Source: a virus
Taxonomy: Duplodnaviria; Heunggongvirae; Uroviricota; Caudoviricetes
Length of the DNA stretch: 22,665 nt
IMG/VR virus record: IMGVR_UViG_2744054628_000009
Coordinates: 1-22,665 of that record
Reading direction: 5' to 3' (one strand)
In this document: one piece after another, positions 3,164-21,526 of the stretch
How positions within the stretch are numbered: the stretch's first letter is position 1
Layout of the letters: every line of letters starts with the position of its first letter
Program-made: the position numbers and the translations under genes
Notes under the pieces: model-generated
Told to the model about the DNA's origin: nothing
Database searches by the model: none
What the model saw: the letters and a program-made list of their open reading frames with translations, nothing else

Positions 3164-4264
3164 TCACTCCATTTCGAAATCATCAATCTTCACTTCAAGC
3201 TCCAAACTGGTCGTAAAACCGTTATCCGGGCTGACAGTATGCGTCAGGGTGGTAATAGTCCATTCCGCATCATCTATCGGCTGTTTAAAGCCACTGACTT
3301 TCACTGGCATTTCCGTGTAGAGATCTGCCCGACCTTCTGCCAGTTGTAGCGAGAATGACGCAACACCGCGTTGCAGGCGTTCCCACTGCATTTTCGCTGC
3401 CCGCTCGGCGTTGCCCCGGTTGGCATAGGTGCGATTAAGTACCAGCACGTTTTCATCCGTACCCACCAGGTAATCGCCCTGCTTCGCTTCCGGCTCTTTC
3501 TTCTGCTTCTTAGTCCTGCGCTTACGCTTCACGGCAGTGCTTTCTTTCTTCGCGGGTTCACGGGTATGTAACCAACTGGCAATTACGCCCGTATAGGCTC
3601 CGCGATCTGCCAGGGTAAAGCGGTGACTGTCGCCGTCCTTACGTGTGATAGTGATCACCGGCAGTGGTTTACCAGTGGCGCTTTTGCCCTGTCCCTGCCG
3701 GATGAATAACAGATTGCCATTTTTCACCGACGCGATGGCACCGTACTGGCGCGCCAGCCGCATCAGAAAACTGCCGTCACTCTCATTAGTCTGGTCTATA
3801 TGCTCCACGGGCTTATCCGACAGGTCTTTACCCAGTGCCATCTTCAGCTTGTGACGCGCGGCTATTTCCTTCACCACTTCCCCGACAGTGGTCTTGTGCC
3901 ACGACTTTTCACGGCGGGTATTCAGCGTTTCACGAAAATCAGCACTTCGCGCCCGGATAGTCAGGCGGTCCGGTGCGCCAGTGTGTTCAATCTCGTCCAC
4001 CGTGAATGCCCCTTTCGGGAAAAGCGGCTGCCCCTTCCAGCCCAGCGCCAGCGTAATGACCGCACCACGGCGCGGCAGCACGATTTTTCCGTCGGCGTCG
4101 TCCAGCTCCAGATCAAGCTGGTCCGCTTCAAAGCCCCGATTGTCCGTCAGCGTCAGACTCATCAGGCGATTATCCAGGACAGTAGTGATATCCCTGCCCT
4201 CAATACTGATGCTGAATGCGGGAGTTTTGTTGCCCTTGTTAAGCAGTTCAGAGCTGAAATTCAC
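3164..4264 (-). CDS. D: P2 gpD-like tail protein
   Basis: 366-aa ORF immediately upstream of ogr with an ATGA overlap to gpU, as in P2; sequence recalls gpD. Confidence 0.75.
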   Translation of the reverse strand: MNFSSELLNKGNKTPAFSISIEGRDITTVLDNRLMSLTLTDNRGFEADQLDLELDDADGKIVLPRRGAVITLALGWKGQPLFPKGAFTVDEIEHTGAPDRLTIRARSADFRETLNTRREKSWHKTTVGEVVKEIAARHKLKMALGKDLSDKPVEHIDQTNESDGSFLMRLARQYGAIASVKNGNLLFIRQGQGKSATGKPLPVITITRKDGDSHRFTLADRGAYTGVIASWLHTREPAKKESTAVKRKRRTKKQKKEPEAKQGDYLVGTDENVLVLNRTYANRGNAERAAKMQWERLQRGVASFSLQLAEGRADLYTEMPVKVSGFKQPIDDAEWTITTLTHTVSPDNGFTTSLELEVKIDDFEME

Positions 4265-4746
4265 GACAGCAGCCCTCCCACCGTTTTACTGATATCGCTT
4301 AAAGCAGATGTTGCCGTTTCCTGCAGATTATTCAGTTGCGCACTGAGATCACCGAACATATCGGACAGGGATTCATCCACCCGTTTGAGCGACAGGGTGA
4401 ACTCAATCCGGCGCGGCATACCATCGCGGAAAAACTCCGTTTTAGTCTGATTCAGTCCCTCAATCACATACATGCCGTAAATCGTGCCGCTGCCTTCAAT
4501 CAGGGGCCATGCTTTTCCCTGTTCTGCCATCTGCTCCAGAGCCAGCAACGACAGCCTGCCGCCCGTTATCTCCGGCATAAGAACACCAGAAAGCGTCAGC
4601 ATGTCGTTGTCCGGTCCCAGAAACTGCGTGGACGGACGTCGGTTGACCCGGCTGTTTGCCGCATGTCGCCAGCTGCGTTGATACTGCAGTTCCTGATACG
4701 GCACAGTGCGCAGCATAAACACGTACAATCCCAGCACCATCATCAT
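4261..4746 (-). CDS. U: P2 gpU-like tail protein
   Basis: 161 aa (P2 gpU is about 159 aa); position between T and D; start/stop overlaps with neighbours. Confidence 0.75.
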   Translation of the reverse strand: MMMVLGLYVFMLRTVPYQELQYQRSWRHAANSRVNRRPSTQFLGPDNDMLTLSGVLMPEITGGRLSLLALEQMAEQGKAWPLIEGSGTIYGMYVIEGLNQTKTEFFRDGMPRRIEFTLSLKRVDESLSDMFGDLSAQLNNLQETATSALSDISKTVGGLLS

Positions 4747-5634
4747 GCGTCGTATCCCCCCTGATCGCTGTAGTTACTCCTGGCTTTTGCCTTCAGTCTG
4801 CGCTCACGTTCATCAAGCTGGCGGGCCACCTCCCGCGCAATATCCTGCGCACTTTGTCCTGGCTGCGTCTGAATGATGATCTGCGTCGGTGCCTCAATCC
4901 GGTAAATGGGCGGCACAGTAGCTGCACGACTCACCATCGCTTCACCGCCTTTCGCGGGAAGCGCCAAAGGATGCAACGGTGGAAACTCTGCTGGCGCGGC
5001 AGCAACGCCCATCATTCCGGCAACAACGGCAGCCAGTGCAGCTGTATTTTTCCGGCTGGTCACATTTGCCGGGCCGTTAACAATTTCCGGCCCGTTTTCA
5101 CCGACGATGCCAAACTGCCCGCGCGGGATATACCCGCCGCTGTCATACATCCCCGCAAAGCCATATCCCCATGATGGAAAACCACCCGATGGCATCATCA
5201 CTTTACCGTCTGCATTCACCGTCGCAGGTTGCTGACGCGTCACGCTTTCCGGCAGTTTTGCCTTTGCGGCCTCTTTACTGACAATGCCGAGCTTCTCCAG
5301 CAACCAGGAAACGCCAGATTTCAGGGAGTCCAGCGGATGCGTGACCATATTCAGCCCTTCCGCCAGTGCCTCCCCGAATCGCCGCCCCATTGCCGCTGCG
5401 CTCTGCAGTTCGGCAGAGGTCGACTTAACGGGCGTCAGCAGATCAGTAAACCAGCCCCACAGCGCCTGCACTTTGTCGCCAATCCACTGGAACACGGGCT
5501 TAAGCGGTTCGAACGCTGCACTGATGGGACCTGCCGCCGCTTTGAATCCTTCCACCACGCCACCGAGAAATGCGGTGATGGGTTGCCAGTATTTCCAGAC
5601 AACCAGCGCCACGCCCGCCAGTGCAGTAACCACA
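4743..5634 (-). pseudogene. T: Tape measure protein gpT, C-terminal fragment only
   Basis: About 300 codons of Gly/Ala-rich tape-measure-like sequence ending in frame at the U start. The roughly 500 N-terminal codons expected for P2 gpT are absent. The upstream boundary is a deletion junction near 5635-5645. Confidence 0.65.
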
Positions 5635-5991
5635 AGACCTACCTTCAGCCAGTTGCGGCTTATAGCTTTCCGGGCAGTTGCCCACGGCAATCAATGCCCC
5701 GGACTCATCAAACAAGCCCACTTCACGTATCCACCAACCGCCCTCGTTTTCAGGGATCACCTGTTCGGCAATAATCTGGCTGCTGTTCTGCGGGTCGATA
5801 TAAAGCATATTCAGCGCAGCCCGGCGTTTCTCATTTACCAGTGCCGTCTGCTTTGCGTCCGGCGTTGGCAATACTCCACTGCCATCGCCCACCGCCATAT
5901 GGGTAATTTTTAGCGGCACACCGAGCGCGGCGGCGCTGGCAAGTTTCGCCGCGCCAATATCCGTCAGCAGGGTATAAAATTTTGTGCTCAT
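5635..5991 (-). pseudogene. H: Tail fiber protein gpH, N-terminal fragment (about 116 aa) fused out of frame to the gpT fragment
   Basis: MSTKFYTLLTDIGAAKLASAAALGVPLKITHMAVGDGSG...ESYKPQLAEG matches the remembered gpH N-terminus; after ...LAEG the frame reads Cys/Gly/Arg-rich nonsense to a stop at 5500. Confidence 0.7.
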
Positions 5992-6593
5992 GGATTCACT
6001 CTCATTGTGTCAATAACATGGACCGCCCCGCCTTCATGCGCGGTGCCACCGGAAATAATCGTTTCGTTGATATACGGATAGATCGTGATTTCTTCGCCAA
6101 GATAGCTGGCGGCTCCCACCCAATGCGGGCCGCTGGTCTGCAGATTGATGGACATGCCGATCATGTGGCGGCTACATGGTTTGGCATCGCTTATCAGTCG
6201 CTCAAGTTCCAGATAGGTATCTTCAGTGATGCCCTGGTCCTGCACGCCGATATCCAGGCGAAACGTGCCCGGTGTTTCTCCGGTCTGCCACCACTCAATA
6301 ATGCGGATCAGGAATCCGAACGGCTCCACCACCCGCCGCACGGCACTGGTGGTCCCTTTATGCTGATGAATATAAAAAGCATCCTTCACCACCTGGCGCT
6401 TGACGCTTTCTGTCCAGCCCTCGTCCCAGCGATCCACAGAGAACGCCCAAGCGAGATAAGGCAGGAAACTGACCGGACAGGTTGCCGGATTCCACAAGTC
6501 ACGAAGCGGCACCTGCAGATCAGAAATCCCGCTGCAAGTTTGCGCCAGTCGGCGCTCCAGTGGTGTTGAACCCGGTGGCAGCAGACTATTCAT
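5988..6593 (-). CDS. I: Baseplate protein gpI-like
   Basis: MNSLLPPGSTPLERRL...RDLWNPATCP...LPYLAWAFSVDRWDE... matches the conserved gpI N-terminal motifs; 4-nt overlap with the H start. Confidence 0.75.
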   Translation of the reverse strand: MNSLLPPGSTPLERRLAQTCSGISDLQVPLRDLWNPATCPVSFLPYLAWAFSVDRWDEGWTESVKRQVVKDAFYIHQHKGTTSAVRRVVEPFGFLIRIIEWWQTGETPGTFRLDIGVQDQGITEDTYLELERLISDAKPCSRHMIGMSINLQTSGPHWVGAASYLGEEITIYPYINETIISGGTAHEGGAVHVIDTMRVNP

Positions 6594-6878: not shown

Positions 6879-7529
6879 TCAGCGGCTGTCATTGCGCAGT
6901 CTGCGCTCCAGCTGCTGTTTGTCTTTTTTCACGCCACAGCGGGGATCAAGCTGTAACGCATGGTTGAGATGATTAAGGGCGGAAGCCGGATTGCTTTCAC
7001 TCAGGACAGCGCCAATCGCTTTATGCAGACGCGCCCGTGACTGGTCCGGCATATCCAGACCGTCTGTCAGCTCCAGCGTCTGCAACAACAGATCGGCATC
7101 AAAGCCGGTGGCGGCAAGCATTGCGCTCTGCGCGGCGTCTGCCATTTCCTCTGCCAGCACGGTCTGCACGTTGCGGTTACCCAGCGGCATCACCCAGCCA
7201 TGACGCAGGGCATGACGCCCGATCTCCAGCGCCCCGGCATAATCTCCGGCATCAATGCGCCACAGCATCACGTACATCAGCACATCATCCTGTTGAGCGC
7301 CTCCGGCAGCCAGGACACCCTCTGCCCAGGCGGCGTACTTCGGCAGCAGCTCCACCTTGATTTCCGCTTTTTTGACCGTGGACTGAACACCCTTGAGACG
7401 GCGGCGGTCTTCCGCCAGTTGCAGCAGCATCAGGTCATAGCCCGATGCGTGGCGAACACTGCCGCCCTCGCGGGCGGCCTGTTCAGCCTGAACGCGCAGG
7501 CGATGCTGCCGTGCGGGACTCAGGCTCAT
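6879..7529 (-). CDS. M: Terminase small (endonuclease) subunit gpM-like
   Basis: MSLSPARQHRLRVQAEQAAREGG...AQQDDVLMYVMLWRIDAGDYAGALEIGRHAL... matches remembered P2 gpM from residue 1; GGAG ribosome-binding site about 7 nt upstream on the minus strand. Confidence 0.75.
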   Translation of the reverse strand: MSLSPARQHRLRVQAEQAAREGGSVRHASGYDLMLLQLAEDRRRLKGVQSTVKKAEIKVELLPKYAAWAEGVLAAGGAQQDDVLMYVMLWRIDAGDYAGALEIGRHALRHGWVMPLGNRNVQTVLAEEMADAAQSAMLAATGFDADLLLQTLELTDGLDMPDQSRARLHKAIGAVLSESNPASALNHLNHALQLDPRCGVKKDKQQLERRLRNDSR

Positions 7530-9015
7530 GGATTACGCTCCGGTTTCGGCTGCGGCGGCGCTGAAATCACCAATCTGGATGTTTTCCAACCGCAATAAAG
7601 GCCCACGCCGTCAGCCGGAAAAGAATGTTTTCACCGATGAGCAGATTGAGAAGCTGGAAGAAATCTTCCATTCCTCCATGTTCAACTACCAGCGCCACTG
7701 GTGGGAAGCCGGAAAAACCAACCGCATCCGCAACCTGCTGAAGTCACGCCAGATCGGCGCGACCTTCTATTTTGCCCGTGAAGCCCTGATTGACGCCCTG
7801 CTTACCGGACGTAACCAGATTTTCCTTTCTGCCAGTAAGGCTCAGGCCCACGTCTTTAAACAATACATCATCGACTTTGCCAAAGAAGTCGAGGTGGAGC
7901 TAAAAGGCGATCCGATGGTGCTTCCTAACGGAGCCACGCTTTACTTCCTCGGCACCAATGCCCGCACGGCCCAGAGTTATCACGGCAACCTGTATCTGGA
8001 TGAATATTTCTGGATACCGAAATTCCAGGAGCTGCGCAAAGTGGCTTCCGGGATGGCTATTCACAAAAAATGGCGACAAACCTATTTTTCCACGCCATCC
8101 AGCCTGACCCACAGTGCTTATCCGTTCTGGTCCGGTGCGCTGTTCAACCGTGGACGCAACAAAGCTGACAAGGTGGACATCGACCTGTCCCACAGCAATC
8201 TGGCCCCCGGCCTGCTGTGCGCAGACGGGCAATACCGCCAGATAGTCACCGTGGAAGATGCGGTGCGCGGCGGCTGTAACCTGTTCGACCTCGACCAGCT
8301 ACGCATGGAGTACAGCCCGGACGAATACCAGAACCTGCTGATGTGCGAGTTCGTGGACGATCTCGCGTCCGTGTTCCCGCTCAGCGAACTGCAGGCGTGC
8401 ATGGTGGACAGCTGGGAAGTCTGGACCGACTTTCATGCACTGGCCCTGCGCCCGTTTGGCTGGCGCGAAGTGTGGATCGGTTATGACCCGGCAAAAGGTA
8501 CGCAGAACGGCGACAGTGCCGGATGCGTGGTGGTGGCTCCGCCAGCCGTGCCGGGTGGTAAGTTCCGCATTCTTGAGCGTCACCAGTGGCGCGGGATGGA
8601 CTTCCGCGCCCAGGCTGACGCCATCAAAAAACTCACCGAACAGTACAACGTGACCTATATCGGTATCGACTCAACCGGCGTTGGTCACGGGGTTTATGAG
8701 AACGTGAAAGCGTTCTTTCCTGCCGTCCGGGAGTTTGTCTACAACCCCAATGTTAAAAACGCCCTGGTACTCAAGGCCTACGACATTATCAGCCACCGCC
8801 GTCTGGAGTTTGACGCCGGGCACACCGACATTGCGCAGTCATTCATGGCAATCCGTCGCGCCACCACCGCCAGCGGCAACCGCCCGACCTATGAAGCCAG
8901 CCGCAGCGAAGAAGCCAGCCACGCCGATCTGGCCTGGGCAACGATGCACGCACTGTTTAACGAACCGCTGCAGGGCGAATCCGCCAATACCAGCAATATT
9001 GTGGAGATTTTTTGA
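7528..9015 (+). CDS. P: Terminase large (ATPase) subunit gpP-like, probably truncated at the 5-prime end
   Basis: Walker-A-like LKSRQIGAT; 4-nt overlap with the Q start. The M start codon abuts this ORF with no room for the divergent promoters or for O and N. The first 20-30 codons of the ORF are probably not native. True start not determined. Confidence 0.65.
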   Translation: MDYAPVSAAAALKSPIWMFSNRNKGPRRQPEKNVFTDEQIEKLEEIFHSSMFNYQRHWWEAGKTNRIRNLLKSRQIGATFYFAREALIDALLTGRNQIFLSASKAQAHVFKQYIIDFAKEVEVELKGDPMVLPNGATLYFLGTNARTAQSYHGNLYLDEYFWIPKFQELRKVASGMAIHKKWRQTYFSTPSSLTHSAYPFWSGALFNRGRNKADKVDIDLSHSNLAPGLLCADGQYRQIVTVEDAVRGGCNLFDLDQLRMEYSPDEYQNLLMCEFVDDLASVFPLSELQACMVDSWEVWTDFHALALRPFGWREVWIGYDPAKGTQNGDSAGCVVVAPPAVPGGKFRILERHQWRGMDFRAQADAIKKLTEQYNVTYIGIDSTGVGHGVYENVKAFFPAVREFVYNPNVKNALVLKAYDIISHRRLEFDAGHTDIAQSFMAIRRATTASGNRPTYEASRSEEASHADLAWATMHALFNEPLQGESANTSNIVEIF

Positions 9016-10040
9016 TGGGAAAGAGTAAGAAAAACCGCGCTGCGGCGACGAATCAGCTCAAGCATAAAAGCCAGACTTCAGCCGAAGCATTCAGCTTTGG
9101 CGATCCCGTTCCTGTTCTGGACCGCCGTGAACTGCTGGACTATGTGGAATGCGTACAGATGGACCGCTGGTATGAGCCGCCCGTCAGCTTTGACGGACTG
9201 GCACGAACCTTCCGCGCTGCCGTGCATCACAGCTCACCGATTGCAGTAAAATGCAACATTCTGACCAGTACCTACATCCCTCACCCGCTGCTCAGCCAGC
9301 AGGCTTTTTCACGTTTTGTGCAGGACTATCTGGTATTTGGTAACGCCTACCTGGAGAAACGCACGAACCGCTTCGGTGAAGTTATCGCCCTTGAGCCTGC
9401 TCTGGCAAAATACACCCGACGCGGGTTAGACCTGGATACCTACTGGTTTGTGCAATACGGTATGACAACCCAGCCGTATCAGTTCACGAAAGGCAGCATT
9501 TTTCATCTGATGGAACCGGACATTAACCAGGAGATCTACGGCCTGCCCGGCTATCTTTCTGCCATTCCGTCCGCCCTGCTCAATGAGTCCGCCACGCTGT
9601 TCCGCCGCAAGTATTACATTAACGGTAGTCATGCAGGCTTCATCATGTACATGACCGATGCTGCGCAGAACCAGGAGGACGTGAACAACCTCCGCAATGC
9701 AATGAAAAGTGCCAAAGGTCCGGGTAACTTCCGCAACCTGTTTATGTACTCGCCTAACGGCAAAAAGGACGGCCTTCAGATCATCCCTTTGTCAGAAGTT
9801 GCGGCGAAGGATGAGTTTCTAAATATCAAGAACGTGAGCCGGGATGACATGATGGCAGCACATCGCGTTCCGCCACAGATGATGGGGATAATGCCTAATA
9901 ATGTTGGGGGATTTGGGGATGTAGAAAAAGCTAGTAAGGTATTTGTGAAAAATGAATTATTACCATTACAAAAAAGAATGAAAGAATTTAATCATTGGAG
10001 CGGTGAAGAAATTATAAAATTCGAGAGATATCAAATTTAG
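9012..10040 (+). CDS. Q: Portal protein gpQ-like
   Basis: 342 aa (P2 gpQ is about 344 aa), immediately downstream of P with an ATGA overlap. Confidence 0.8.
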   Translation: MMGKSKKNRAAATNQLKHKSQTSAEAFSFGDPVPVLDRRELLDYVECVQMDRWYEPPVSFDGLARTFRAAVHHSSPIAVKCNILTSTYIPHPLLSQQAFSRFVQDYLVFGNAYLEKRTNRFGEVIALEPALAKYTRRGLDLDTYWFVQYGMTTQPYQFTKGSIFHLMEPDINQEIYGLPGYLSAIPSALLNESATLFRRKYYINGSHAGFIMYMTDAAQNQEDVNNLRNAMKSAKGPGNFRNLFMYSPNGKKDGLQIIPLSEVAAKDEFLNIKNVSRDDMMAAHRVPPQMMGIMPNNVGGFGDVEKASKVFVKNELLPLQKRMKEFNHWSGEEIIKFERYQI

Positions 10041-10041
10041 C

Positions 10042-10066
10042 AAAGTGCCTCTAAAAGAGGCGCTTT
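10042..10066. terminator. Hairpin between the convergent Q and DprA-like genes (possible bidirectional terminator)
   Basis: aaagtgcctct-aaa-agaggcgcttt: an 11-bp stem with one G-T pair, A-rich on the 5-prime side and T-rich on the 3-prime side. Confidence 0.45.
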
Positions 10067-11039
10067 AAATCAAGTCTAATGTACTCTGTTTCCCTGGCCA
10101 TTTTAGCTCTAACAAATACTCCCGAGACTCATTTATGATCATAATCACATCATCATAATCCCGTTTTGTTTTTAACGCTCTAGCCATGTTGCTCTTAACT
10201 AAATCAACTGTTCCCTCACAATTAAGATTAAGCGGATTATTAGGTAGGTGAGGTACAACCGCAAACACTGGTCTTTTCGCCTTATTTGCAAACTCAGCTT
10301 GAGTTATCGTTCCGCTATTTAACGCAGCCTCGATTAAAATTGAACCTGCAGATAATCCAACTTGTATCCGATTTCTTTGTACAAATGATTGTTTCTGGGC
10401 CGGTCGACCCATAGGATACTCAGAAATCCATGCACCACCTTTATCCAGAATCTCTTGAGCAAGTCGACTGTTTTGCTTCGGCTTAGCCTCCTCAAGACCA
10501 TGCGCCAAGACAGCAATGGTTTTTCCTTTTGCTTGTAACGTTGCCTTATGAGCATTCGCATCAGTGCCTATTGCTAACCCACTTACAACAATATACCCAG
10601 CAGACACTATTTGATTAGTGATTCGCCTCGTTATTTCTTCCCCTGCAGGGGAAGTATCACGGGATCCTACAATTGCGACACCCGGCAATTCTTTTAGTAT
10701 ACTTTTATCCCCTTTTATGTAGAGAATTGATGGTGGATTAGGAGTAAACGCTAAACTAAGAGGATAGAATTCAGACCCATATGGTATTAGCTCCACACCA
10801 TTAACATGGTGGTTCTCCAATTCAGCATTCGCTATTAGAAAATCAGTCTCAGATATTTTATCTTTTAGAAACCCGTGGCTATTAACCATCTCAGTTAAGT
10901 CGCGTATATCACGAATAACATCAAAATCAATAAGCTCAAAGAATTTCAATACACTTTGATCAGATGCTAGCTTCCCGATTTGAATAGCTAATCCAAGTGT
11001 ATTTTTTAATTCTTCTGAGTGCACTTTGCTACTCCTCAT
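10065..11039 (-). CDS. shosA: DprA/Smf-like (SLOG-fold) protein; ShosA-like
   Basis: C-terminal region VAIVGSRDTSPAGEEI...SGLAIGTDANAHKATLQAKGKTIAVLAHGLE...QRNRIQVGLSAGSILIEAALNSGTI fits the DprA Rossmann-domain pattern. Start overlaps the upstream PRTase gene by 11 nt; an AGGAG precedes an alternative GTG at 11027. Confidence 0.65.
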   Translation of the reverse strand: MRSSKVHSEELKNTLGLAIQIGKLASDQSVLKFFELIDFDVIRDIRDLTEMVNSHGFLKDKISETDFLIANAELENHHVNGVELIPYGSEFYPLSLAFTPNPPSILYIKGDKSILKELPGVAIVGSRDTSPAGEEITRRITNQIVSAGYIVVSGLAIGTDANAHKATLQAKGKTIAVLAHGLEEAKPKQNSRLAQEILDKGGAWISEYPMGRPAQKQSFVQRNRIQVGLSAGSILIEAALNSGTITQAEFANKAKRPVFAVVPHLPNNPLNLNCEGTVDLVKSNMARALKTKRDYDDVIMIINESREYLLELKWPGKQSTLDLI

Positions 11040-11604
11040 AGTTTGCAGTTTCTAGCAGAGCTAATGGCATTATAACTCCAGCTCCTGCAGACTCCAGTAA
11101 ATAAAAACACGCAGACAAACTACCGCCTGTTGTTTTAACATCATCTAGTAGTAACACATTTCGCCCCATGAGGTTACCACCCCTAACTCTGATACTAGAC
11201 ATGTGACCAGTAATTGAGCGATCTCCTCCTTCACGATGTGCGCTAGGAACAGTGCGTGTTCTTTCCAAACAGCAATCAACAATGCCCCGACGGTGAACAT
11301 TTACGATTCGCTCGGCGACCTCAATCAAAGCCGGTGAAATTCTGCCTTCAGTGTGAGATGGGACGACTGCTATCGAAAAAGGAGACTCAACAAAACGCCC
11401 ACCGCCACCTCTGATTACTAACCGCCCAACCTTATCTATAGCTAATCGAGAAAAACGGTTAATAGCCCTTTGATGATTACGATTATTTTCATCCTTAAAA
11501 TCCATCATCTGCCTTGATAGTTCATCGCTATGAGGGTTGCGCTCTCCCAAATGCCAGTAGGGGTGATACAAGCCACACGATGTAACACTTACGGGTAAAA
11601 GCAT
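11029..11604 (-). CDS. shosT: Phosphoribosyltransferase-domain protein; ShosT-like
   Basis: Type I PRTase PRPP-binding motif VLLLDDVKTTGGSL near residue 150; 191 aa; translationally coupled to the DprA-like gene. Confidence 0.65.
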   Translation of the reverse strand: MLLPVSVTSCGLYHPYWHLGERNPHSDELSRQMMDFKDENNRNHQRAINRFSRLAIDKVGRLVIRGGGGRFVESPFSIAVVPSHTEGRISPALIEVAERIVNVHRRGIVDCCLERTRTVPSAHREGGDRSITGHMSSIRVRGGNLMGRNVLLLDDVKTTGGSLSACFYLLESAGAGVIMPLALLETANYEE

Positions 11605-11761
11605 TCTTTATTCTCATGTAGTCCTAACTCAAACAATGTTAAGCGAAATGATATTTCATAGACAAACATAAAATTAAGAATAATCTCAATGATCACATTT
11701 TTGATTATGAAACAAAGCCAAGAGTTAGCGCGCGCTCGTATCCCCGCCACGCCTGCCCGCT

Positions 11762-11880
11762 TTATGCAGTGGTTTTCATGCACATGCATGACATGAGCAA
11801 AAGCCCGCCAGTTCTGGCGGATCTGAGCAAAGACGATCCTCAATCGATCATGCGATTTCATGCAGCATAGTCATGCACTG
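11762..11880. repeat. Cluster of (T/A)CATGCA heptamer repeats flanking a GC-rich inverted repeat
   Basis: TCATGCA at 11776, 11857 and 11869; variants TTATGCA at 11762 and ACATGCA at 11782; inverted repeat ccgccag-tt-ctggcgg at 11805-11820. Lies in a 528-bp intergenic region between divergent genes. Confidence 0.4.
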
Positions 11881-12132
11881 TCAAGGAAGTGAAAATCCGT
11901 ATCTGAATGGCCACTTGAAAAACGGATCATACGGGTTTACAAAGATGAATGTTCGCTGTGAACGGGAAGCGGAAGTTAACTTTCAGATAACATAATCCAT
12001 ATGCACGAGAACCTCTAAAATAGAATGGGACACCTAAGCGGGGTACTTACAACGATTCTTTCCATATTCACAGTTAACACTCTGTTTGGCGTATTTTTAT
12101 TCAAATAGCAAACACCAATAAAAGGAGTTTCC

Positions 12133-12468
12133 ATGAACAATATTCCCCCTATACCACAGTTAGGAATTTATGTCTCAAAAATCGATCCCACCCTACGTAT
12201 CACTGTAACCGATGTTGATATTGTTGATGGTGAGGATGATTCTCCTGATGATGAATTGTTTTATTTAGTCCACTGGATCGAGGGGGAAGATGAAAGTGAT
12301 ATGACAGCAATGGGATTTGAGCTAGACCCATTAGAGTGGCAGGCTTTCGTTGAATCTGAGCAATTAGTGTTTGAGCGTGATCCGTACATGGATTCAATCC
12401 CCGAAAATTCAAACTTGGCAAAGATTCGGGATTTTCTCATGAAGACTAAACAGAATGATCATTCGTAA
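12133..12468 (+). CDS. Highly acidic small hypothetical protein (111 aa)
   Basis: Strong ribosome-binding site AAAGGAG 7 nt before the ATG; protein very rich in D/E (DVDIVDGEDDSPDDELF...EGEDESD...); no family recognised. Confidence 0.6.
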   Translation: MNNIPPIPQLGIYVSKIDPTLRITVTDVDIVDGEDDSPDDELFYLVHWIEGEDESDMTAMGFELDPLEWQAFVESEQLVFERDPYMDSIPENSNLAKIRDFLMKTKQNDHS

Positions 12469-12660: not shown

Positions 12661-12894
12661 TTAATGCAGCCAGCTGTCGTCCTCCCACACCTTCTGCATA
12701 ATTTTCATCACTTGTTTTCTTTCTTCATCCAGTTGCAGTCCGGTTAGTTCCACACCGTTAGAGCTACCTTTGCGAATGCGAATTACCGTTTTGGGATACA
12801 GGGGGCGCAGATTGCGGTAAAGCTCGGATTCAAGTGCGTCCAGGGTAGACTGGCTAATCTTCTGCTCTTTATCGATCATTATTTCAATGCGCAT
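12661..12894 (-). CDS. DinI-like protein
   Basis: MRIEIMIDKEQKISQSTLDALESELYRNL...KIMQKVWEDDSWL resembles DinI (MRIEVTIAK...). Own GAGGTG ribosome-binding site; the ORF-track start at 12966 is likely an artefactual extension. Confidence 0.7.
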   Translation of the reverse strand: MRIEIMIDKEQKISQSTLDALESELYRNLRPLYPKTVIRIRKGSSNGVELTGLQLDEERKQVMKIMQKVWEDDSWLH

Positions 12895-12904
12895 AAAAGT
12901 CACC

Positions 12905-13093
12905 TCAGCTGATGACATCCATTGAGCGGTTGTATTCGTGGCTTCTGATTTTTGCCATGAGTTCATCAGTCAATTCAGAAACCCACTGCAGAGCCAGCCC
13001 CTTCTCTTCATCACTACACTCACTAGCCGCTACAAGCTTAAGAAAAAAATCAATGCGCTGGAGCTTCAAAGACTCCAAAAAATAGTCCTGCAT
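12905..13093 (-). CDS. Small SOS-regulated protein, first gene of a LexA-controlled operon (Tum-like antirepressor candidate)
   Basis: 62-aa ORF preceded by an AGGAGG ribosome-binding site and a LexA box; its stop overlaps the ribosome-binding site of the DinI-like gene. Function inferred from position only. Confidence 0.5.
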   Translation of the reverse strand: MQDYFLESLKLQRIDFFLKLVAASECSDEEKGLALQWVSELTDELMAKIRSHEYNRSMDVIS

Positions 13094-13245: not shown

Positions 13246-15660
13246 TTAATACAGGTTCCGCCACTTATCATCTTCCTTCAGACGCTGGTTCCGATAGAAG
13301 ATACGCAGGCCTGCTCCTGACGGAATACTGCCGCCGCGAAGGAGCAAATCGACTTCTTTCTCGCTGCCATCAAATCCCCTGGACTTCAGTTCATAGACGA
13401 GCTGCTGTCGCTGATGGTCTGTAATTCGCTGTTTGTAGTCTTTACGCCGTTTCGGTTTCACCTGGCGTAACCTTGCAGCCAGTTCCCGGCGCTCTTTTTT
13501 GCTCATACTGTGCAGGTAATCGTGCAACTCCTTGTCATTCATACGGGTAATATCCGTTCTGGAGTCCCCATCAGCTGATTTGTCTTTCCCTTGTTGGTTC
13601 AAATTTTCAGCAAGGGGACAGTTATTGCCACGAGTCCAAGGGGCGCAAGCGCCCTGGTCGGCTGCCGCCTCCTGAACGTCAACGACCTTACGAACCATTT
13701 TCCATTTCATTGCATGAGTGCAGATCTTGCCCTGTACAATGGGTGACCAGATGCCATAAATACGAATACCGTGATCGCCATAAGCGGTCGGCTCTTCGTT
13801 AATTTCATAAGCTGTTCTGATAAGGTGATATTTGCGGGGAACCAGTACGCCGCCCTGCTTCATGATGTAGGTGGCAAAACAGCCAGCATCAGCGGCAGCC
13901 AGGATGGCATCAAGGCGCGGGTCATCCAGTACCGGCGCACCTGCTTTTTTATCACCCTGTTGCCTTGCCGCCTGACCAGCCAGCAAGCGAAGTTCACGGT
14001 ACGCCTGACGCCCCGGAATACCAAAGAAGCGGAACTGCTGAACACGATGCAGAGACGCCCAGGCATTAACGTATTCGGCGTTATCACGCAGGGATTTACC
14101 CGTTTCCTTGCTGATCTCGCCAGCCAGACCACGTCCGTCAATGTTCTTACTGATGTATTTCGCGATGTAGCTTGTCGGCGTTCCTTTGCGCGGGTTTATC
14201 AGCTCAGACTTAAAGCGTGGACCCGTGTTATTGCCCAGTTCCTCGCGGTCTTCACGGATGGCAAACTTACGCAACAATGCAGTAATGGCGCGGCGGTCTT
14301 TTTTGCGCATGAAACACATGAGATGCCAGTGCACAGTACCGTCATGGTGCGGCTCAGCCACCCGCACGCCATACCAGCGCAACCCGGCTTTGTGCATAGC
14401 CTTACGAAATGCAGCAAACATGCCGACCAGATAATCGCTGCTTTGTCTTACCGTCGCATTTGTCCAGGTTGGGTTTGGTCTGCCGTTATTGAGCGTAGAA
14501 TGGAAACGTGACGGACAGGTAATGGTGTAGAAAACGGCGCAGTCACCACGCATTTCCGCGATAAGCTCCAGACCTTTAACACAGGCCATCATCTCATTGC
14601 GGCGGTGCGCCGGGTTGCTGCTGCTGGCGTTTACCACGTCTTCCATATCCAGCGTGTCGCCGTCTTCGTTCACCAGTTCATGAGAACGGAAAAACTCCAG
14701 CGACTTGCGGCGCTGCTCACGTTTATGCGTCACTGCTTCATAGCTGACATAGGGAGATGCTTTTTTGCTGACCAGGCAGACAGCACGCAACTGCTCTTCC
14801 CGCCATTCGCAACGTATCTTCCACAATTTTCGATACCACCAGTCGGCGCAAAGCATACGTGCCAGCGAACCCGGTATGAGTTCATAGGGCACGGGTTTGC
14901 GGCGGTTTCTTTTCCGACGGAGTTTCTCAAACGCAGGCGGGATAACATCCAGACGCAGGGTTTCCGCTGCCACCTTTTCCCATGTCTTGCGGATTTCTTC
15001 TGGCTTAACGTCATCGGAGGCATACAAATCACCACAAGCGGCCTCAAGACACATGCTCATATGCGCTGCTACCAAGGTGGACAGGCGTTTTACCTGATCC
15101 TGACTCATTTCAGGTAGGATCAGCAGGCCCTCAAGCCCTTGATGGCTTGCCATAAAACGGAAAGAAGCGGATAGCTGACTGTCGCGTACATACTCCAGTC
15201 GCTCCAGACATGACTTAATCGTCTCACGCAAATAGCGGGAATAAGCCTTTGGCCTGCCCAGGCTGCTGAAGTATTCGATACGTTGCATCAGCGGCTTGCT
15301 GATGTGGGTGGGCTGGGCGCTGACGTCCGCCAGAATGACCATGTCCGGGTTAAAACGCTGCTGCTCATGCGCCAGCTTTGCCCGACTAATGAGATTATCC
15401 TGCTCCATTTCGCGCTGGACAGGATCACGGGATTCATTAAAGAAATAACGCTCCCAGACCTGCTCACTCAGTGCATCGCGGCGCAGCTGTTCCTGCTCGT
15501 TATCGGCAGCGTACAAAGTGATCATGTTTGAAAGTGCAGACTCCGGCGCAACTTCCGCCGGGTCCAGATAAGGGTTAATGGCCTTTTTCGGGCCGTTCCA
15601 TGAAAATGCTGCAGCGGCCTCGTTAAAGCCGCTAGAGTTGCTCATATCATCATGACTCAT
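13246..15660 (-). CDS. A: Replication initiation protein gpA-like (rolling-circle nickase)
   Basis: 804-aa ORF at the end of the early operon with an ATGA overlap to the upstream dam gene; sequence recalls P2/186 gpA. Confidence 0.8.
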
Positions 15661-16513
15661 ACACGCACCTCGTACACAGCAGAACTATCCACGCCACGCG
15701 AAGGATCAAATCCCACCCAGCAGCGCGCCCCGGAAACAGCAATGATTTCTGTTGCAGATTTACTCTCGCCAGCCGACACGCCGATGCTGCGTTTTGCCTT
15801 GATGTAGTGGTGAGTGAAATTGCGATACAGCGAACGAATCAGGGATGTGTCACTGTTAGAAACAATGACCGGATGACCTTCAGATGATCGATGTTCAAGA
15901 ACGGATGCCAGGTGATACTGGTCATCCTCAGTGAAGCCATCAGTGTGATAGCCGGAAAACGTACCGTCATAAGGCGGATCGCAATACACCACATCCCCCG
16001 CCTTCAACATCGCCAGCGTTTCATCAAAGCTGGCGCAGATAAACGTTGCTCGCTGGGCTTTTTCTGCAAATTTGCGAATTTCTTTTTCAGGGAAATACGG
16101 ATTTTTATAATTCCCGTAGGGAATGTTGAATGCCCGCTCTTGTTATAGCGACATAACCCACGGTAACCATGACGATTGAGATACAGGAAATATACCGCTT
16201 TCATGAAATCAGTAATTTCAGTGGAGTAATTAAACTCCTGCCTTATGTTGTAATAAGCCACCTCCCTGTTTGCTTCCTCAAATAAAGCTCTGGCACGAGA
16301 TATAAACGCCTCGCAATCAGCAGCAACCTTTTTATAGAGGTTGATTAAATCAGGATTAATATCCGCAACAAGATAGCTGGGGTAATCCGTCTCTATCATC
16401 ACAGCACAAGAACCCGCGAAAGGTTCAACCAGTCGCGGGCCAGCAGGAAGGTATTTTTTCAGTTCTGGCATAATGGCGGTTTTATTACCCGCCCATTTCA
16501 GGATGGTGCTCAT
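15657..16513 (-). pseudogene. dam: DNA adenine methyltransferase (Dam-like) with a frameshift near 16129-16131
   Basis: N-terminal ORF has motif I ([11 protein letters not shown]) and ...[17 protein letters not shown]; the -1 frame continues [38 protein letters not shown]...VVYCDPPY (motif IV). One base missing in a short homopolymer. Confidence 0.8.
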
Positions 16514-16737
16514 ACAGCACCTCCGTTGTAATGTTTGCCTTTCAGCTCTGCGATTTCCTGACAGGTAATGCAAAGCTGCACACCCGGAATGGCGCGACGT
16601 CGTGCTGGCGGAATTGGTGCTTCACACTCAATGCAAAGCACGCGGGATACGCCCGGCGTTTTGGCGCGGGCAGCACGGATATGACGCTGGCGTTCTTCTT
16701 CAACGCGCTGCTGTACGAGATCCATTGCATCAGCCAT
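16510..16737 (-). CDS. TraR/DksA-family C4 zinc-finger protein
   Basis: C-x2-C ... C-x2-C pattern ([26 protein letters not shown]); AGGAG ribosome-binding site; ATGA overlaps with both neighbours. Confidence 0.7.
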
Positions 16738-18415: not shown

Positions 18416-18439
18416 GACAAAAGTTCACTTGGAGTGACC

Positions 18440-19009
18440 ATGAATTTGGAGAAAGGCGGACGAGGCGCTATAGAGCGCATGGTAGAAGCATATGGCTTCA
18501 AGACTCGACAGGCGTTGTGCGATCACTTAGGAATCTCTAAAAGTACTCTCGCCACACGCTATATGCGTGACTCATTCCCTGCTGAATGGGTAATCCAGTG
18601 CGCACTTGAAACGGGCGCCTCGCTTAACTGGCTCACGACCGGACATGGTTCAAAGCAAACTTCAGGTAATACAAATACTATGGAAGTCGTTAAATATGTA
18701 TTATCTGATGGAACCTTGCAGGAAGATGGTTTTTATATTTTCGATAAAGAATTTCTACCATCTACGCTCAAAAATCCGTTTGTAATCACCGATAACAATT
18801 CCGTTTTTATTTGCGATAAAGAGTTTAACGATATTCGTGACGGCAAATGGGTAATAAGTATTGATGCCGAAGTAACAATCCGCGATATCACTCGTTTACC
18901 TGGTGGAAGAATCTTAGTTGAAGGTGGAAATAGGGCTTTCGAATGTAAAAAAGAAGAAATTGAAATTATTGGAAAAATTATAAGCATAACAGTTAAGTAC
19001 TTTGAGTAA
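18440..19009 (+). CDS. cI: 186-type CI immunity repressor
   Basis: N-terminal HTH motif AIERMVEAYGFKTRQALCDHLGISKSTLATRYMRDSFPAEWVIQCALETG plus a CI C-terminal-type domain. GGAG at 18431-18434 precedes the ATG at 18440; an alternative in-frame GTG is at 18434. Confidence 0.75.
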   Translation: MNLEKGGRGAIERMVEAYGFKTRQALCDHLGISKSTLATRYMRDSFPAEWVIQCALETGASLNWLTTGHGSKQTSGNTNTMEVVKYVLSDGTLQEDGFYIFDKEFLPSTLKNPFVITDNNSVFICDKEFNDIRDGKWVISIDAEVTIRDITRLPGGRILVEGGNRAFECKKEEIEIIGKIISITVKYFE

Positions 19010-19059
19010 TATAGGAATGTTTTTATGCTTGGTAAAGCATTTGTTGTGGTGTAAAAAAT

Positions 19060-19983
19060 ATGTCAACTCAAAAATTAAAATTTAGCCATATCAAAAACGA
19101 TCTGAAAGCAATAGTTATGCAGAATCGTGGAGGGCAAAAAGTTATTGAGCGTATACTCCTAGCCTATGGCTTCAAGTCACGACAGGCATTATGTAATCAT
19201 CTAGGTATTTCCCAAAGTACTATGGCCAACAGATATGCACGTAATACCTTTCCTGCAGATTGGGTTGTTATATGTTCCATAGAAACAGGAGCATCAATTG
19301 AATGGTTAGTTCTTGGTTCAGATACTGCTCCTTCATCAAAGCAATATTCTGAAAAACATGCCGTTAATGGCCTTTGCAATGAAGTATACATTCCCACTAT
19401 AAAGTTCGATAATGAAAAACTCATGAATTTTAACCGAGGGGGTAAGGCAACAATAGAACGAATTGTCGAGGCTTACGGTTACAAAACGCGCCAAGCATTA
19501 GCTGATCACCTAGGTATTTCAAAAAGCACATTAGCCACACGATACATGCGTGACATTTTTCCTGCAGACTGGGTTTTGCAGTGTGCAATAGAAACGGGCC
19601 ATTCTATTGAATGGATTTCATTTGGTACAGGAGAAATGAAAAACGCAAAAAATAAAGATACTTTAACATTAGTGAAAAAAGTATTAATCAATGGCAAGTT
19701 AATAAATGATGGCTCATATTTATTTGACCCATGCTTTCTACCTTCCAATTTAAAAAATGCATTCGTAGTATCTACCGAAGACTCTGAATTAATATGTGAA
19801 ATAGGTTTTAAAGATGTACATGATGGTAAGTGGCTAGTAAATATTGATGGAGAGAATTCATTTAGAATGATAACTCGACTACCTAAAGGACGAGTTTATA
19901 TTTCATCCCAAAATCACTCTTTTGAATGTTCGCTTACAGACATTGAGTTTATTGCAAAAGTTATTATAAGTTGTTTACATTAA
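19060..19983 (+). CDS. CI-repressor paralog with two tandem N-terminal HTH domains and a CI-like C-terminal domain
   Basis: Two HTH copies (about aa 22-85 and 127-190) each resemble the cI N-terminus; the second is roughly 85% identical by eye. The C-terminal part aligns with the cI C-terminus (LPSNLKN..., DGKWL.NID..., ITRLP.GR). AT-rich. Confidence 0.65.
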   Translation: MSTQKLKFSHIKNDLKAIVMQNRGGQKVIERILLAYGFKSRQALCNHLGISQSTMANRYARNTFPADWVVICSIETGASIEWLVLGSDTAPSSKQYSEKHAVNGLCNEVYIPTIKFDNEKLMNFNRGGKATIERIVEAYGYKTRQALADHLGISKSTLATRYMRDIFPADWVLQCAIETGHSIEWISFGTGEMKNAKNKDTLTLVKKVLINGKLINDGSYLFDPCFLPSNLKNAFVVSTEDSELICEIGFKDVHDGKWLVNIDGENSFRMITRLPKGRVYISSQNHSFECSLTDIEFIAKVIISCLH

Positions 19984-20008: not shown

Positions 20009-21526
20009 GTGAAATGTGGTGATTGTAATTGGAACTGGGATGAAGAAACTACCTTTATATTAGACGACGAAGAGGAAATTCTTTCCAAAGACAAACTTAA
20101 TCGGAGACACTATGCAGAATATCTATATTTTTATCTTAAGGAAAAGGGGAAAAAGAACAACACGGTAATCAACCTTAATGCAGAATGGGGAGCTGGTAAA
20201 AGTTTTTTCATAAAGAGATTTTATAACTCAATAAAAGATGCACACCCATGCGTTTACATTGATGCCTGGAAGCAAGACTTTTCTGATGATGCATTTTTAA
20301 CCCTTTTTTCTTCTTTGTCACAACAATTGCAAACATATGCAGGAAAACTTGATGCTCGATTGATACAAAGCGGCCATGCTATCGGACGCTTTACAAAAGG
20401 TGTTCTACCTGAAATCATATCTGGCCTAATCAAGACTTATGCAGGAGTAGATAACGTAGGTGATATAGCCAAAGAAGCCTCATTAATAATGCTGAAGGAA
20501 CACCAGGAAAAACTGAAGAGCATTAAGGTATTAAAAAAAGAACTAACGTTATGGTCTAGGTTGGCATATGAAAATAGTTTTTCATATCCTATATTTATCT
20601 TTATAGATGAATTAGACAGATGCAGGCCAGATTATGCAATTTCTCTTTTAGAGATTGTTAAACATATATTCGATATTAAAAATTTTGTCTTTATTATTGC
20701 TACTGACACAGATCAATTACAACATTCAATCAAGAATGTTTACGGTAATGATTTTTCCGCAAATGACTATTTAGGCCGTTTTTTTCATAGAAGATTTACT
20801 TTAAAACAACCTGAACTTAAAGATTTAATTAATGGTGTTGTTGGTGATTATATTGGTACCGATTTTGAAAATATCACATCAAAAACATACCCACTAACAG
20901 CAACATTAGAAGACTTTTCAATAAATATTTCCAACGTATTTGAAGCATTTGGGTTAAATCTAAGAGACTCAATCCGAAATACTGAAAGGTTAATAGACAT
21001 TCTTAAATCTGATTTAGTCAAAAAGAAAGTAGATTATATTTTTATAATTTCGCTAATGATTATATATGATAAGGATCGTCAAATTATAGATGGACTAATT
21101 GGTCGAAGAAATGCAGCACAACGTTTCACTGATTCGATAAAGCAAAGCTCCAATTTAAAAGGTGTTTCTCAAGCCATCCTTGAATTAAATCTTGATACAA
21201 ATCAGCAAAGAATAGGTGTCAATTATATCTATAGAACGGCGAGCAGTAGATTATTCATCTCACAGATCGAGCCCAAAATAAATTTAACATTAATAAATTA
21301 CTTAGATGTTGCATTGTATTTTATTAATAATATAAACATGCTTAAATCAAGTATAAAAAACAATGGGCAAAATTCACTAATGATTATATCTCAACAAGGC
21401 CCTATTGATGGTGATACAGCTATAAAGTATTTGCAAGGAGCCCTTATAGAGAATGGTCTGAATACATCTTTTTATGCCTTACATAATTACATTGAATTAA
21501 TTGAACTGGCCACATCATTTGATTAA
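20009..21526 (+). CDS. KAP-family P-loop NTPase (PifA-like)
   Basis: Walker A GAGKSFF (about aa 60) and Walker B IFIFIDELDRCRP (about aa 196), in the form typical of KAP NTPases; GTG start with GGAG 8 nt upstream; strongly AT-rich, 505 aa. Confidence 0.65.
   Translation: MKCGDCNWNWDEETTFILDDEEEILSKDKLNRRHYAEYLYFYLKEKGKKNNTVINLNAEWGAGKSFFIKRFYNSIKDAHPCVYIDAWKQDFSDDAFLTLFSSLSQQLQTYAGKLDARLIQSGHAIGRFTKGVLPEIISGLIKTYAGVDNVGDIAKEASLIMLKEHQEKLKSIKVLKKELTLWSRLAYENSFSYPIFIFIDELDRCRPDYAISLLEIVKHIFDIKNFVFIIATDTDQLQHSIKNVYGNDFSANDYLGRFFHRRFTLKQPELKDLINGVVGDYIGTDFENITSKTYPLTATLEDFSINISNVFEAFGLNLRDSIRNTERLIDILKSDLVKKKVDYIFIISLMIIYDKDRQIIDGLIGRRNAAQRFTDSIKQSSNLKGVSQAILELNLDTNQQRIGVNYIYRTASSRLFISQIEPKINLTLINYLDVALYFINNINMLKSSIKNNGQNSLMIISQQGPIDGDTAIKYLQGALIENGLNTSFYALHNYIELIELATSFD

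Follow-up and report, generated by a model that had tools for sequence, protein, structure and literature searches.

Introduction

The cos site of P2-family phages has a 55-bp core and 19-nt 5′ cohesive ends, a hallmark of the family for which three later papers (PMC5694545, PMC3931495, and PMC9594776) cite Ziermann and Calendar (1990). It is the only homology between P2 and P4-like satellites (PMC9122126), and in cosmids built on the P4 cos, longer flanks coincided with much higher transduction (PMC9594776). The reviews consulted on small terminases and on P2-like genomics do not mention subsites within the P2 cos.

The DNA beside this site is a hotspot for cargo genes. The retrons Ec67 and Ec86 replace the cos-to-terminator DNA of a 186-related prophage (Dodd and Egan, 1996), and a DprA-plus-PRTase system of the same hotspot protects against T7 and lambda (Rousset et al., 2022; PMC9122126).

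Here, we analyze a 528-bp gap between genes in a stretch of viral DNA of 22,665 nucleotides (the window). A preliminary description of this gap had pointed out clustered heptamers and inverted repeats and had read them as a multi-site regulatory region or a structured RNA. We argue, with considerable confidence, that positions ~11722 to 11880 are instead a cos site of the P2/186/Fels-2 type, that its TGCAT motifs are most likely terminase subsites, that the hairpin between them is an optional part, and that the DNA on either side is foreign to cos.

Results

Gene order around the gap

Gene identification with Pfam and PHROGs showed that the window is a P2/186-type prophage (Table 1), with 186-type CII and CI genes and an integrase past gpA. 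The portal gene (Q) ends on one side of the gap, and the right-end accessory genes and gpA lie on the other; P2 and 186 have the same layout around cos.

Table 1. Features of the window. Coordinates are window positions, and offsets (negative or positive numbers) are counted from the top-strand nick in the orientation of the P2 map.
Feature	Coordinates	Strand	Basis or remarks
gpM-like small terminase gene	6879-7529	-	phrog_74, E = 1e-88
Terminase large subunit (gpP)	7528-9015	+	Pfam/PHROGs
Portal protein (Q)	9012-10040	+	Pfam/PHROGs
DprA-like protein	10065-11039	-	Pfam/PHROGs
PRTase	11029-11604	-	Pfam/PHROGs, PADLOC
528-bp gap	11605-12132		Between PRTase and 111-aa ORF
AT-rich leader, presumed promoter region of ShosT-ShosA cargo	11605-11721	-	27-36% GC; outside cos
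Left-arm cos flank CGCGCGC	11728-11734	-	+19 to +25; end of conserved core
cosN, putative 19-nt cohesive-end sequence	11735-11753	-	GGCGTGGCGGGGATACGAG; identity to SEN8 putative cos
Right-arm core	11754-11789	-	AAAGCGGGCA, then TGCATGAAAACC, then palindromic CATGCATG
Extra, lineage-specific TGCAT	11764-11768	-	-15; in 11/117 sites
TGCAT	11778-11782	-	-29; in TGCATGAAAACC
Palindromic CATGCATG	11784-11789	-	-36/-35
Perfect 7-bp inverted repeat	11805-11820	-	CCGCCAG-TT-CTGGCGG, then GCTTTTGC; terminator-like
Three GATC (Dam) sites in spacer	11820-11823, 11835-11838, 11846-11849		Last two at -85 and -96
Distal array, three phased motifs	11850-11877	-	
ATGCG (CGCAT variant)	11850-11854	-	-101
ATGCA	11860-11864	-	-111
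ATGCA	11873-11877	-	-124
Lineage-specific DNA upstream of 111-aa ORF	11880-12132	+	Holds second inverted repeat
Second inverted repeat	11890-11902 / 11929-11941		11/13 complementary bases
111-aa acidic ORF	12133-12468	+	phrog_17127
DinI/Tum-like gene	12661-12966	-	Pfam/PHROGs
Replication protein A (gpA)	13246-15660	-	Pfam/PHROGs

The two genes to the left of the gap are cargo. PADLOC identified them as ShosA (E = 2.8e-70) and ShosT (E = 3.6e-14), a DprA/PRTase pair; in Pfam, DNA_processg_A was matched with E = 1e-60, and the match to Pribosyltran was weak and below cutoff. The window thus has what marks a ShosTA system, a PRTase-type toxin (ShosT) adjacent to a DprA-like antitoxin (ShosA), and the start of ShosT at 11604 is backed by N-terminal conservation with SopEPhi orf14. 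We also considered a retron, with the PRTase, a 324-aa reverse transcriptase, and an upstream msr-msd, and rejected it; the 324-aa protein is DprA/ShosA.

Similar pairs are present elsewhere. SopEPhi orf15 and orf14 (1-1375) form a second ShosA/ShosT-like pair in the same portal-cos slot, behind an unrelated leader. In E. coli E2348/69 (NC_011601), where locus positions 3425-4000 correspond to window 11029-11604, RefSeq/PGAP annotates DprA (ShosA) and omits the PRTase (ShosT). Hence, the toxin half of the pair is invisible in the annotation.

Comparison of the gap with P2-family cos sites

For P2, 186, PSP3, and P4, whose linear records have annotated cohesive ends, we rejoined the two termini and aligned the result with the window and five other phages. 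A 19-mer, a core, and a set of TGCAT positions were shared in this alignment (P2, 186, P4, Fels-2, SopEPhi, and Yersinia and Klebsiella phages). The 19-mer of the window is a GC-rich sequence of the P2-family form GGCG(A/T)GGCGGGG.... It is identical in Fels-2, SopEPhi, and Salmonella phage SEN8 (19/19), and in the last of these it makes up bases 1 to 19, annotated as “putative cos site.” It matches 14 of 19 positions in 186 and PSP3 (counterpart GGCGTGGCGGGGAAAGCAT) and 13 of 19 in P2 and P4 (counterpart GGCGAGGCGGGGAAAGCAC). The homologous 19-mer is where the linear records of P2, 186, and PSP3 start. The SEN8 record, although deposited as circular, starts there too, and its last base is the exact equivalent of window position 11754.

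Conservation extends beyond the 19-mer on both sides. To the right of it, the window and the P2 family share TGCAT(G/T)AAAACC...AAAGCGGGC(A/G), and to the left they share GCGCGC; the window contains the ~55-bp core (right, TGCATKAAAACC...AAAGCGGGCR; left, GCGCGC). From -24 to +25, the window is identical to P2, 186, P4, and PSP3 at 37 to 40 of 50 positions and to SEN8 at 48 of 50. Among 76 non-redundant cos sites, the right-arm core has the highest information content, and the CGCGCGC flank on the left is invariant or nearly so in these representative sites as well as in P2, 186, P4, Fels-2, and SopEPhi.

On account of the shared 19-mer, core, and flanks, the ends of the SEN8 record, and the literature on the 55-bp core of the P2 family, we identify the conserved block at ~11722 to 11880 as a cos site, a long-known kind of element. 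Staggered nicks are predicted at 11754/11753 on the minus strand and at 11734/11735 on the plus strand.

A 90-aa ORF (11589-11861) is the only reading frame in this region, and the preliminary description had taken it to be noncoding. We agree: it matches no family and spans both the cargo junction and the cos cut site. Small CDSs labeled “hypothetical protein” or “unknown” lie across or abut cos in other records too (L010, 1153-1296; L011, 1425-1634; SopEPhi [L009], 1652-2029), and those called over the cos core are probably spurious.

Composition of the 528-bp region

The preliminary description had treated the 528 bp as one element. Compared across genomes, the region is three joined pieces: a cargo leader, the cos site, and lineage-specific upstream DNA. 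Some part of it was matched in 1,267 of 5,426 complete E. coli genomes, the whole in only 10. What is conserved across phages is only window ~11722-11880 (query 118-275), which is shared at 86 to 91% identity by Fels-2, SopEPhi, RE2010, and many P2-like phages of Klebsiella, Yersinia, and Escherichia. In many other E. coli genomes, identity of 99% sets in at query positions 116 to 120 (window 11720-11724). Two of these prophages carry other cargo between the portal gene and this junction: one encodes a DUF4062 protein, the other a pair of hypothetical proteins.

Since sister prophages are 99% identical from ~11722 on and have other genes to the left, we assign 11605-11721 to the ShosTA cargo. 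The leader has 27 to 36% GC, and ~11722-11880 has ~51%. The promoter of ShosTA is presumed to lie in the leader, where it would be read from the minus strand; a sigma-70 consensus scan gave no minus-strand match for ShosTA and one plus-strand match, which lies in the cargo leader, and fewer matches than shuffled sequences. Alignment of the SopEPhi ShosTA leader with that of the window revealed no conserved element beyond cos.

The right-hand piece belongs with its neighbor. The 111-aa ORF is a full-length member of phrog_17127 (E = 7e-70), a family of unknown function. It is kept at 99% identity in sister prophages with different left-side cargo, and Fels-2 and 186 have an unrelated 732-nt gene (orf97-like) at its position.

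These comparisons set the limits of cos. Natural cargo swaps, and with them conservation on the left, end at about +26 to +31, and conservation across genera ends at about 11879 (~-127); together, the two limits delimit a cos site of roughly 155 bp. More DNA is reportedly needed to the right of cos than to the left, a requirement that the unequal limits found here (+26 versus -127) would match.

We also considered whether the region might encode a structured noncoding RNA, a kind of element that the preliminary description had proposed; it could be a small RNA or the RNA part of the neighboring defense system. Inverted repeats could form hairpins, and some PRTase-containing defense systems (retrons) have an upstream noncoding RNA. 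Here, however, the partner of the PRTase is DprA/ShosA rather than a reverse transcriptase. A search of Rfam with the region gave no match even at an E value of ≤10 (noise only), and the fold energies of the two strands, a check that the preliminary description had proposed, were ordinary (z = +0.22 and -0.71). Conservation takes the form of short sequence islands at fixed DNA positions, not of covarying helices, and the conserved block is present in phages without ShosTA. We regard an RNA gene at this locus as extremely improbable.

An array of TGCAT motifs

At least five (T/A)CATGCA heptamers, in two clusters around an inverted repeat, had been noted in the preliminary description. They are real: WCATGCA occurs at 11776, 11782, 11785 (minus strand), 11858, and 11871, five copies in 110 bp (11776-11877), and none of 1,000 dinucleotide shuffles had more than three. 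The resulting p-value is generous, since the motif was picked after looking. Searched across the whole window, as had been suggested, the heptamer is not enriched overall (8 copies in 22.7 kb; 10.7 expected); five of the eight are those clustered here. The 5-mer TGCAT/ATGCA is not significantly clustered in the window, as 59 of 500 shuffles reached the observed value. Hence, only the heptamer form and the positions across genomes carry weight.

Those positions are fixed relative to the nick. TGCAT starts at -124, -111, -101, and -29 in 186, P4, SopEPhi, and a Klebsiella phage; at -123, -111, -101, and -29 in P2; and at -120, -111, -101, and -29 in PSP3. In the window, it starts at -124, -111, -35, -29, and -15, with CGCAT at -101. 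We then searched viral contigs for further unique cos sites with a pattern in which only the -29 motif and the first bases of the 19-mer were fixed; it yielded 117, for which only the other positions are independent evidence. Seventy of the 117 sites have TGCAT at -124, and a further 21 have it at -120 to -123. It is found at -111/-110 in 74 sites and at -101/-100 in 50, and ATGCA is found at -36 in 88. When representatives of less than 85% identity were compared (n = 76), information content formed islands at the motifs and was near zero between them. The expectation that the repeats would be conserved in related elements is thus borne out by fixed offsets in P2, 186, P4, and most of the 117 sites.

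Satellites provide the strongest argument that the motifs are part of the packaging signal. Five P4-like satellites were recognized as loci that encode a Psu homologue but no portal protein. The distal motifs are present in 5, 5, and 4 of their 5 sites, with those at -124 and -111 in all five. In an ungapped comparison of the right arms of the window and P4, 23 of 26 motif positions (88%) are identical, versus 28 of 78 other positions (36%). A satellite that shares only the packaging signal with its helper thus keeps the motifs in place.

Measured from the -29 motif, the distal motifs are 72, 82, and 95 bp away, roughly 7, 8, and 9 helical turns, and therefore face one side of the helix. Such phasing would suit a small terminase subunit that binds cooperatively as an oligomer. 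The TGCAT motifs are most likely terminase recognition subsites. Not every subsite can be essential, given that the inverted repeat is missing from P2 and that one of the three distal motifs is missing from many sites.

A different role for the heptamers would be as operators that control the divergent ShosTA operon, the 111-aa gene, or both; they do lie between divergent genes, in an intergenic region that is long (528 bp). However, the motifs keep their distances from the nick despite different neighbors: old in P2, orf97 in 186, psu/gop in P4, and DUF4062 or other cargo in E. coli. Moreover, none of the heptamers falls in the ShosTA leader (11605-11721), and exchange of the leader between prophages leaves them in place. 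Operators are therefore a very improbable reading. Of what the preliminary description had proposed, a multi-site recognition element in place of random spacer stands; a transcriptional regulatory region does not, since the motifs track the nick and not the genes.

Inverted repeats and GATC sites in the spacer

The inverted repeat between the two clusters is perfect, as had been described. A terminator consensus scan flagged it as a minus-strand hairpin of 7 pairs followed by CTTTTGCTCA, with a short T-run. Perfect stems of at least 6 bp occur in the spacer (-85 to -38) of 54 of the 117 cos sites, versus 14 of 117 for a control stretch. Their sequences vary between sites (GCCCGCCAG, GCGCC, TGGCAGGGT). 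In the Fels-2 class, the stem (9 bp in relatives) is usually followed, toward cosN, by TTTTG(C/T). There is no such inverted repeat in the P2 spacer, and hence the hairpin cannot be essential for packaging. The hairpin is an optional spacer element and, from its sequence, most likely an intrinsic terminator.

The same hairpin could instead be a dyad site for protein binding or DNA bending that unites the two TGCAT clusters, as IHF site I1 does in lambda cosB. It sits exactly between the clusters, and about half of the sites have a repeat at this position in differing sequences (CCGCCAG, GCGCC, TGGCAGGG). On the other hand, it is absent from P2 and ~40% of sites, the Fels-2-class hairpin is followed by TTTTG(C/T) as in an intrinsic terminator, and inspection of the spacer by eye revealed no IHF consensus. 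We consider a bending site unlikely and retain the terminator as the preferred reading.

The second, imperfect inverted repeat of the preliminary description is present, with 11 of 13 bases complementary, but 38 of 200 shuffles of the region equaled or beat it. As it is no better than chance, we give it no weight.

The spacer also contains GATC sites at fixed positions, between and overlapping the TGCAT motifs. Among 36 sites that have the 19-mer of the window (...ATACGAG), GATC is found at -96 in 34 and at -85 in 35. The pair is also present in most ...CTACGAG sites and never in the P2/P4 class. Of the GATC-class loci, 27 continue beyond gpA, and 18 of these encode a Dam homologue, a count that is confounded by phylogeny and has a comparison class not scored for coverage.

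Decay of the prophage

The packaging and structural genes of the window are degraded. The gpM-like gene is near full length and abuts a 5′-truncated gpP gene, in which the N terminus of gpP is lost; genes N (capsid) and O (scaffold) are absent; and the tail genes (3164-6593) are fragments that match parts of PHROG profiles only. Matches to intact prophages stop at ~7588, the gpM/gpP junction, and this deletion junction was found in none of the 5,426 complete E. coli genomes.

Other genes of the window deserve mention. A Dam-type (D12 class) adenine methyltransferase gene (15657-16573, minus strand) is split into two ORFs that cover profile positions 1-150 and 175-253 and is probably a frameshifted pseudogene; in the E2348/69 relative, the gene is intact, single, and 858 nt long. 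A 505-aa KAP-family P-loop NTPase (20009-21526, plus strand) is encoded between two consecutive CI-repressor-like genes (18434-19983, plus strand) and the integrase, a position that may be a second cargo or defense slot. The second CI-like ORF has two matches to the CI helix-turn-helix.

Given this degradation, the cos site of the prophage can work only with a helper phage or is a relic. As a relic, it would sit in a prophage that has lost too much to package anything, and its repeats would have no present function in this genome. That would fit the truncated gpP joined to the start of gpM, the missing capsid and scaffold, the tail fragments, the split Dam gene, and a deletion junction not found in the complete E. 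coli genomes. Against it, the cos block is intact, with the 19-mer and core identical to those of intact phages, and a co-resident or superinfecting P2-type helper could act on it, as for P4. Loss of function is a possibility that we take seriously, though we doubt it; it concerns activity in this host, not the identity of the element as a cos site.

Discussion

How would such a site work? During lytic growth, terminase, composed of gpM (small subunit) and gpP (large subunit), would recognize the cos DNA through the proximal TGCAT pair, 29 and 35 to 36 bp from the nick, and the distal trio, 101, 111, and 124 bp from it. It would then make two nicks 19 bp apart at 11735-11753, leaving the 5′ cohesive ends GGCGTGGCGGGGATACGAG, and thread the genome into the capsid. 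Satellite P4, by copying the TGCAT subsites, would be packaged by its helper. The hairpin between the clusters would stop rightward transcription from the early/SOS side before it reached cosN. The left 117 bp belong to the ShosTA cassette, which is inserted next to cos on its portal side, and the right 250 bp go with the 111-aa gene.

The GATC pair invites comparison with P1. Cleavage at P1 pac, which has clusters of GATC sites, depends on Dam methylation. In both cases, GATC is fixed inside a packaging signal, and the lineage often encodes its own Dam methylase; the difference is that the sites here number only two or three and lie away from the cut site. By analogy, the motifs at -124, -111, -101, -36, and -29 might form a small-terminase binding array of the P2 family, common to helpers and P4-type satellites, with the GATC pair of the Fels-2/SEN8 class making recognition of cos dependent on phage Dam, as at P1 pac. 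We put this forward as a long shot. If true, Dam dependence would mark replicated, methylated phage DNA or time packaging.

The principle behind these findings is already known, and their main value is for annotation. They explain a long “empty” intergenic region and keep cos from being taken for regulatory DNA or an RNA gene; the assignment also removes the spurious small ORFs called across cos in some phage records. It further gives the exact boundary between backbone and cargo in a known hotspot: cargo starts 7 to 12 bp beyond the 19-nt cohesive end, a limit useful for delimiting cargo automatically. The map of TGCAT positions in 117 sites is a ready plan for probing terminase recognition by mutation and for engineering P2/P4 cosmids.

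The locus resembles several described systems to different degrees. With respect to the known cargo hotspot, the insertion lies between the portal gene and cos, its junction falls a few bases past the cos core, and sister prophages fill the same slot with alternative cargos. There is no substantive difference, and the window is one more instance.

The similarity to lambda cos (cosQ-cosN-cosB, with R sites for gpNu1 and an IHF site) is one of plan. Both have a nicking site flanked on one side by short phased repeats, and in both the whole signal takes up ~150 to 200 bp. In contrast, the two have no similarity in sequence, the overhang has 19 nt here and 12 nt in lambda, and an IHF consensus is not evident by eye in the window. 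P2 terminase, moreover, uses monomeric circles. Lambda cos is thus a functional analogy only, not a sign of family membership. The TGCAT array would be the functional equivalent of cosB, although it may instead have a cosQ-like role in termination.

With the cos sites of P2, 186, PSP3, and P4, on the other hand, the similarity is in the letters themselves. They share with the window the position next to the portal gene, a cohesive end GGCG(A/T)GGCGGGGA, and TGCAT at -124, -111, and -29, as well as the motif at -101, where the window has CGCAT. The spacer of the window differs from that of P2, which lacks both features, in its two conserved GATC sites and its terminator-like hairpin. The last six bases of the 19-mer are TACGAG in the window, AAGCAT in 186, and AAGCAC in P2; by this comparison, the 19-mer of the window is the Fels-2/SEN8 variant of the P2-family cohesive end.
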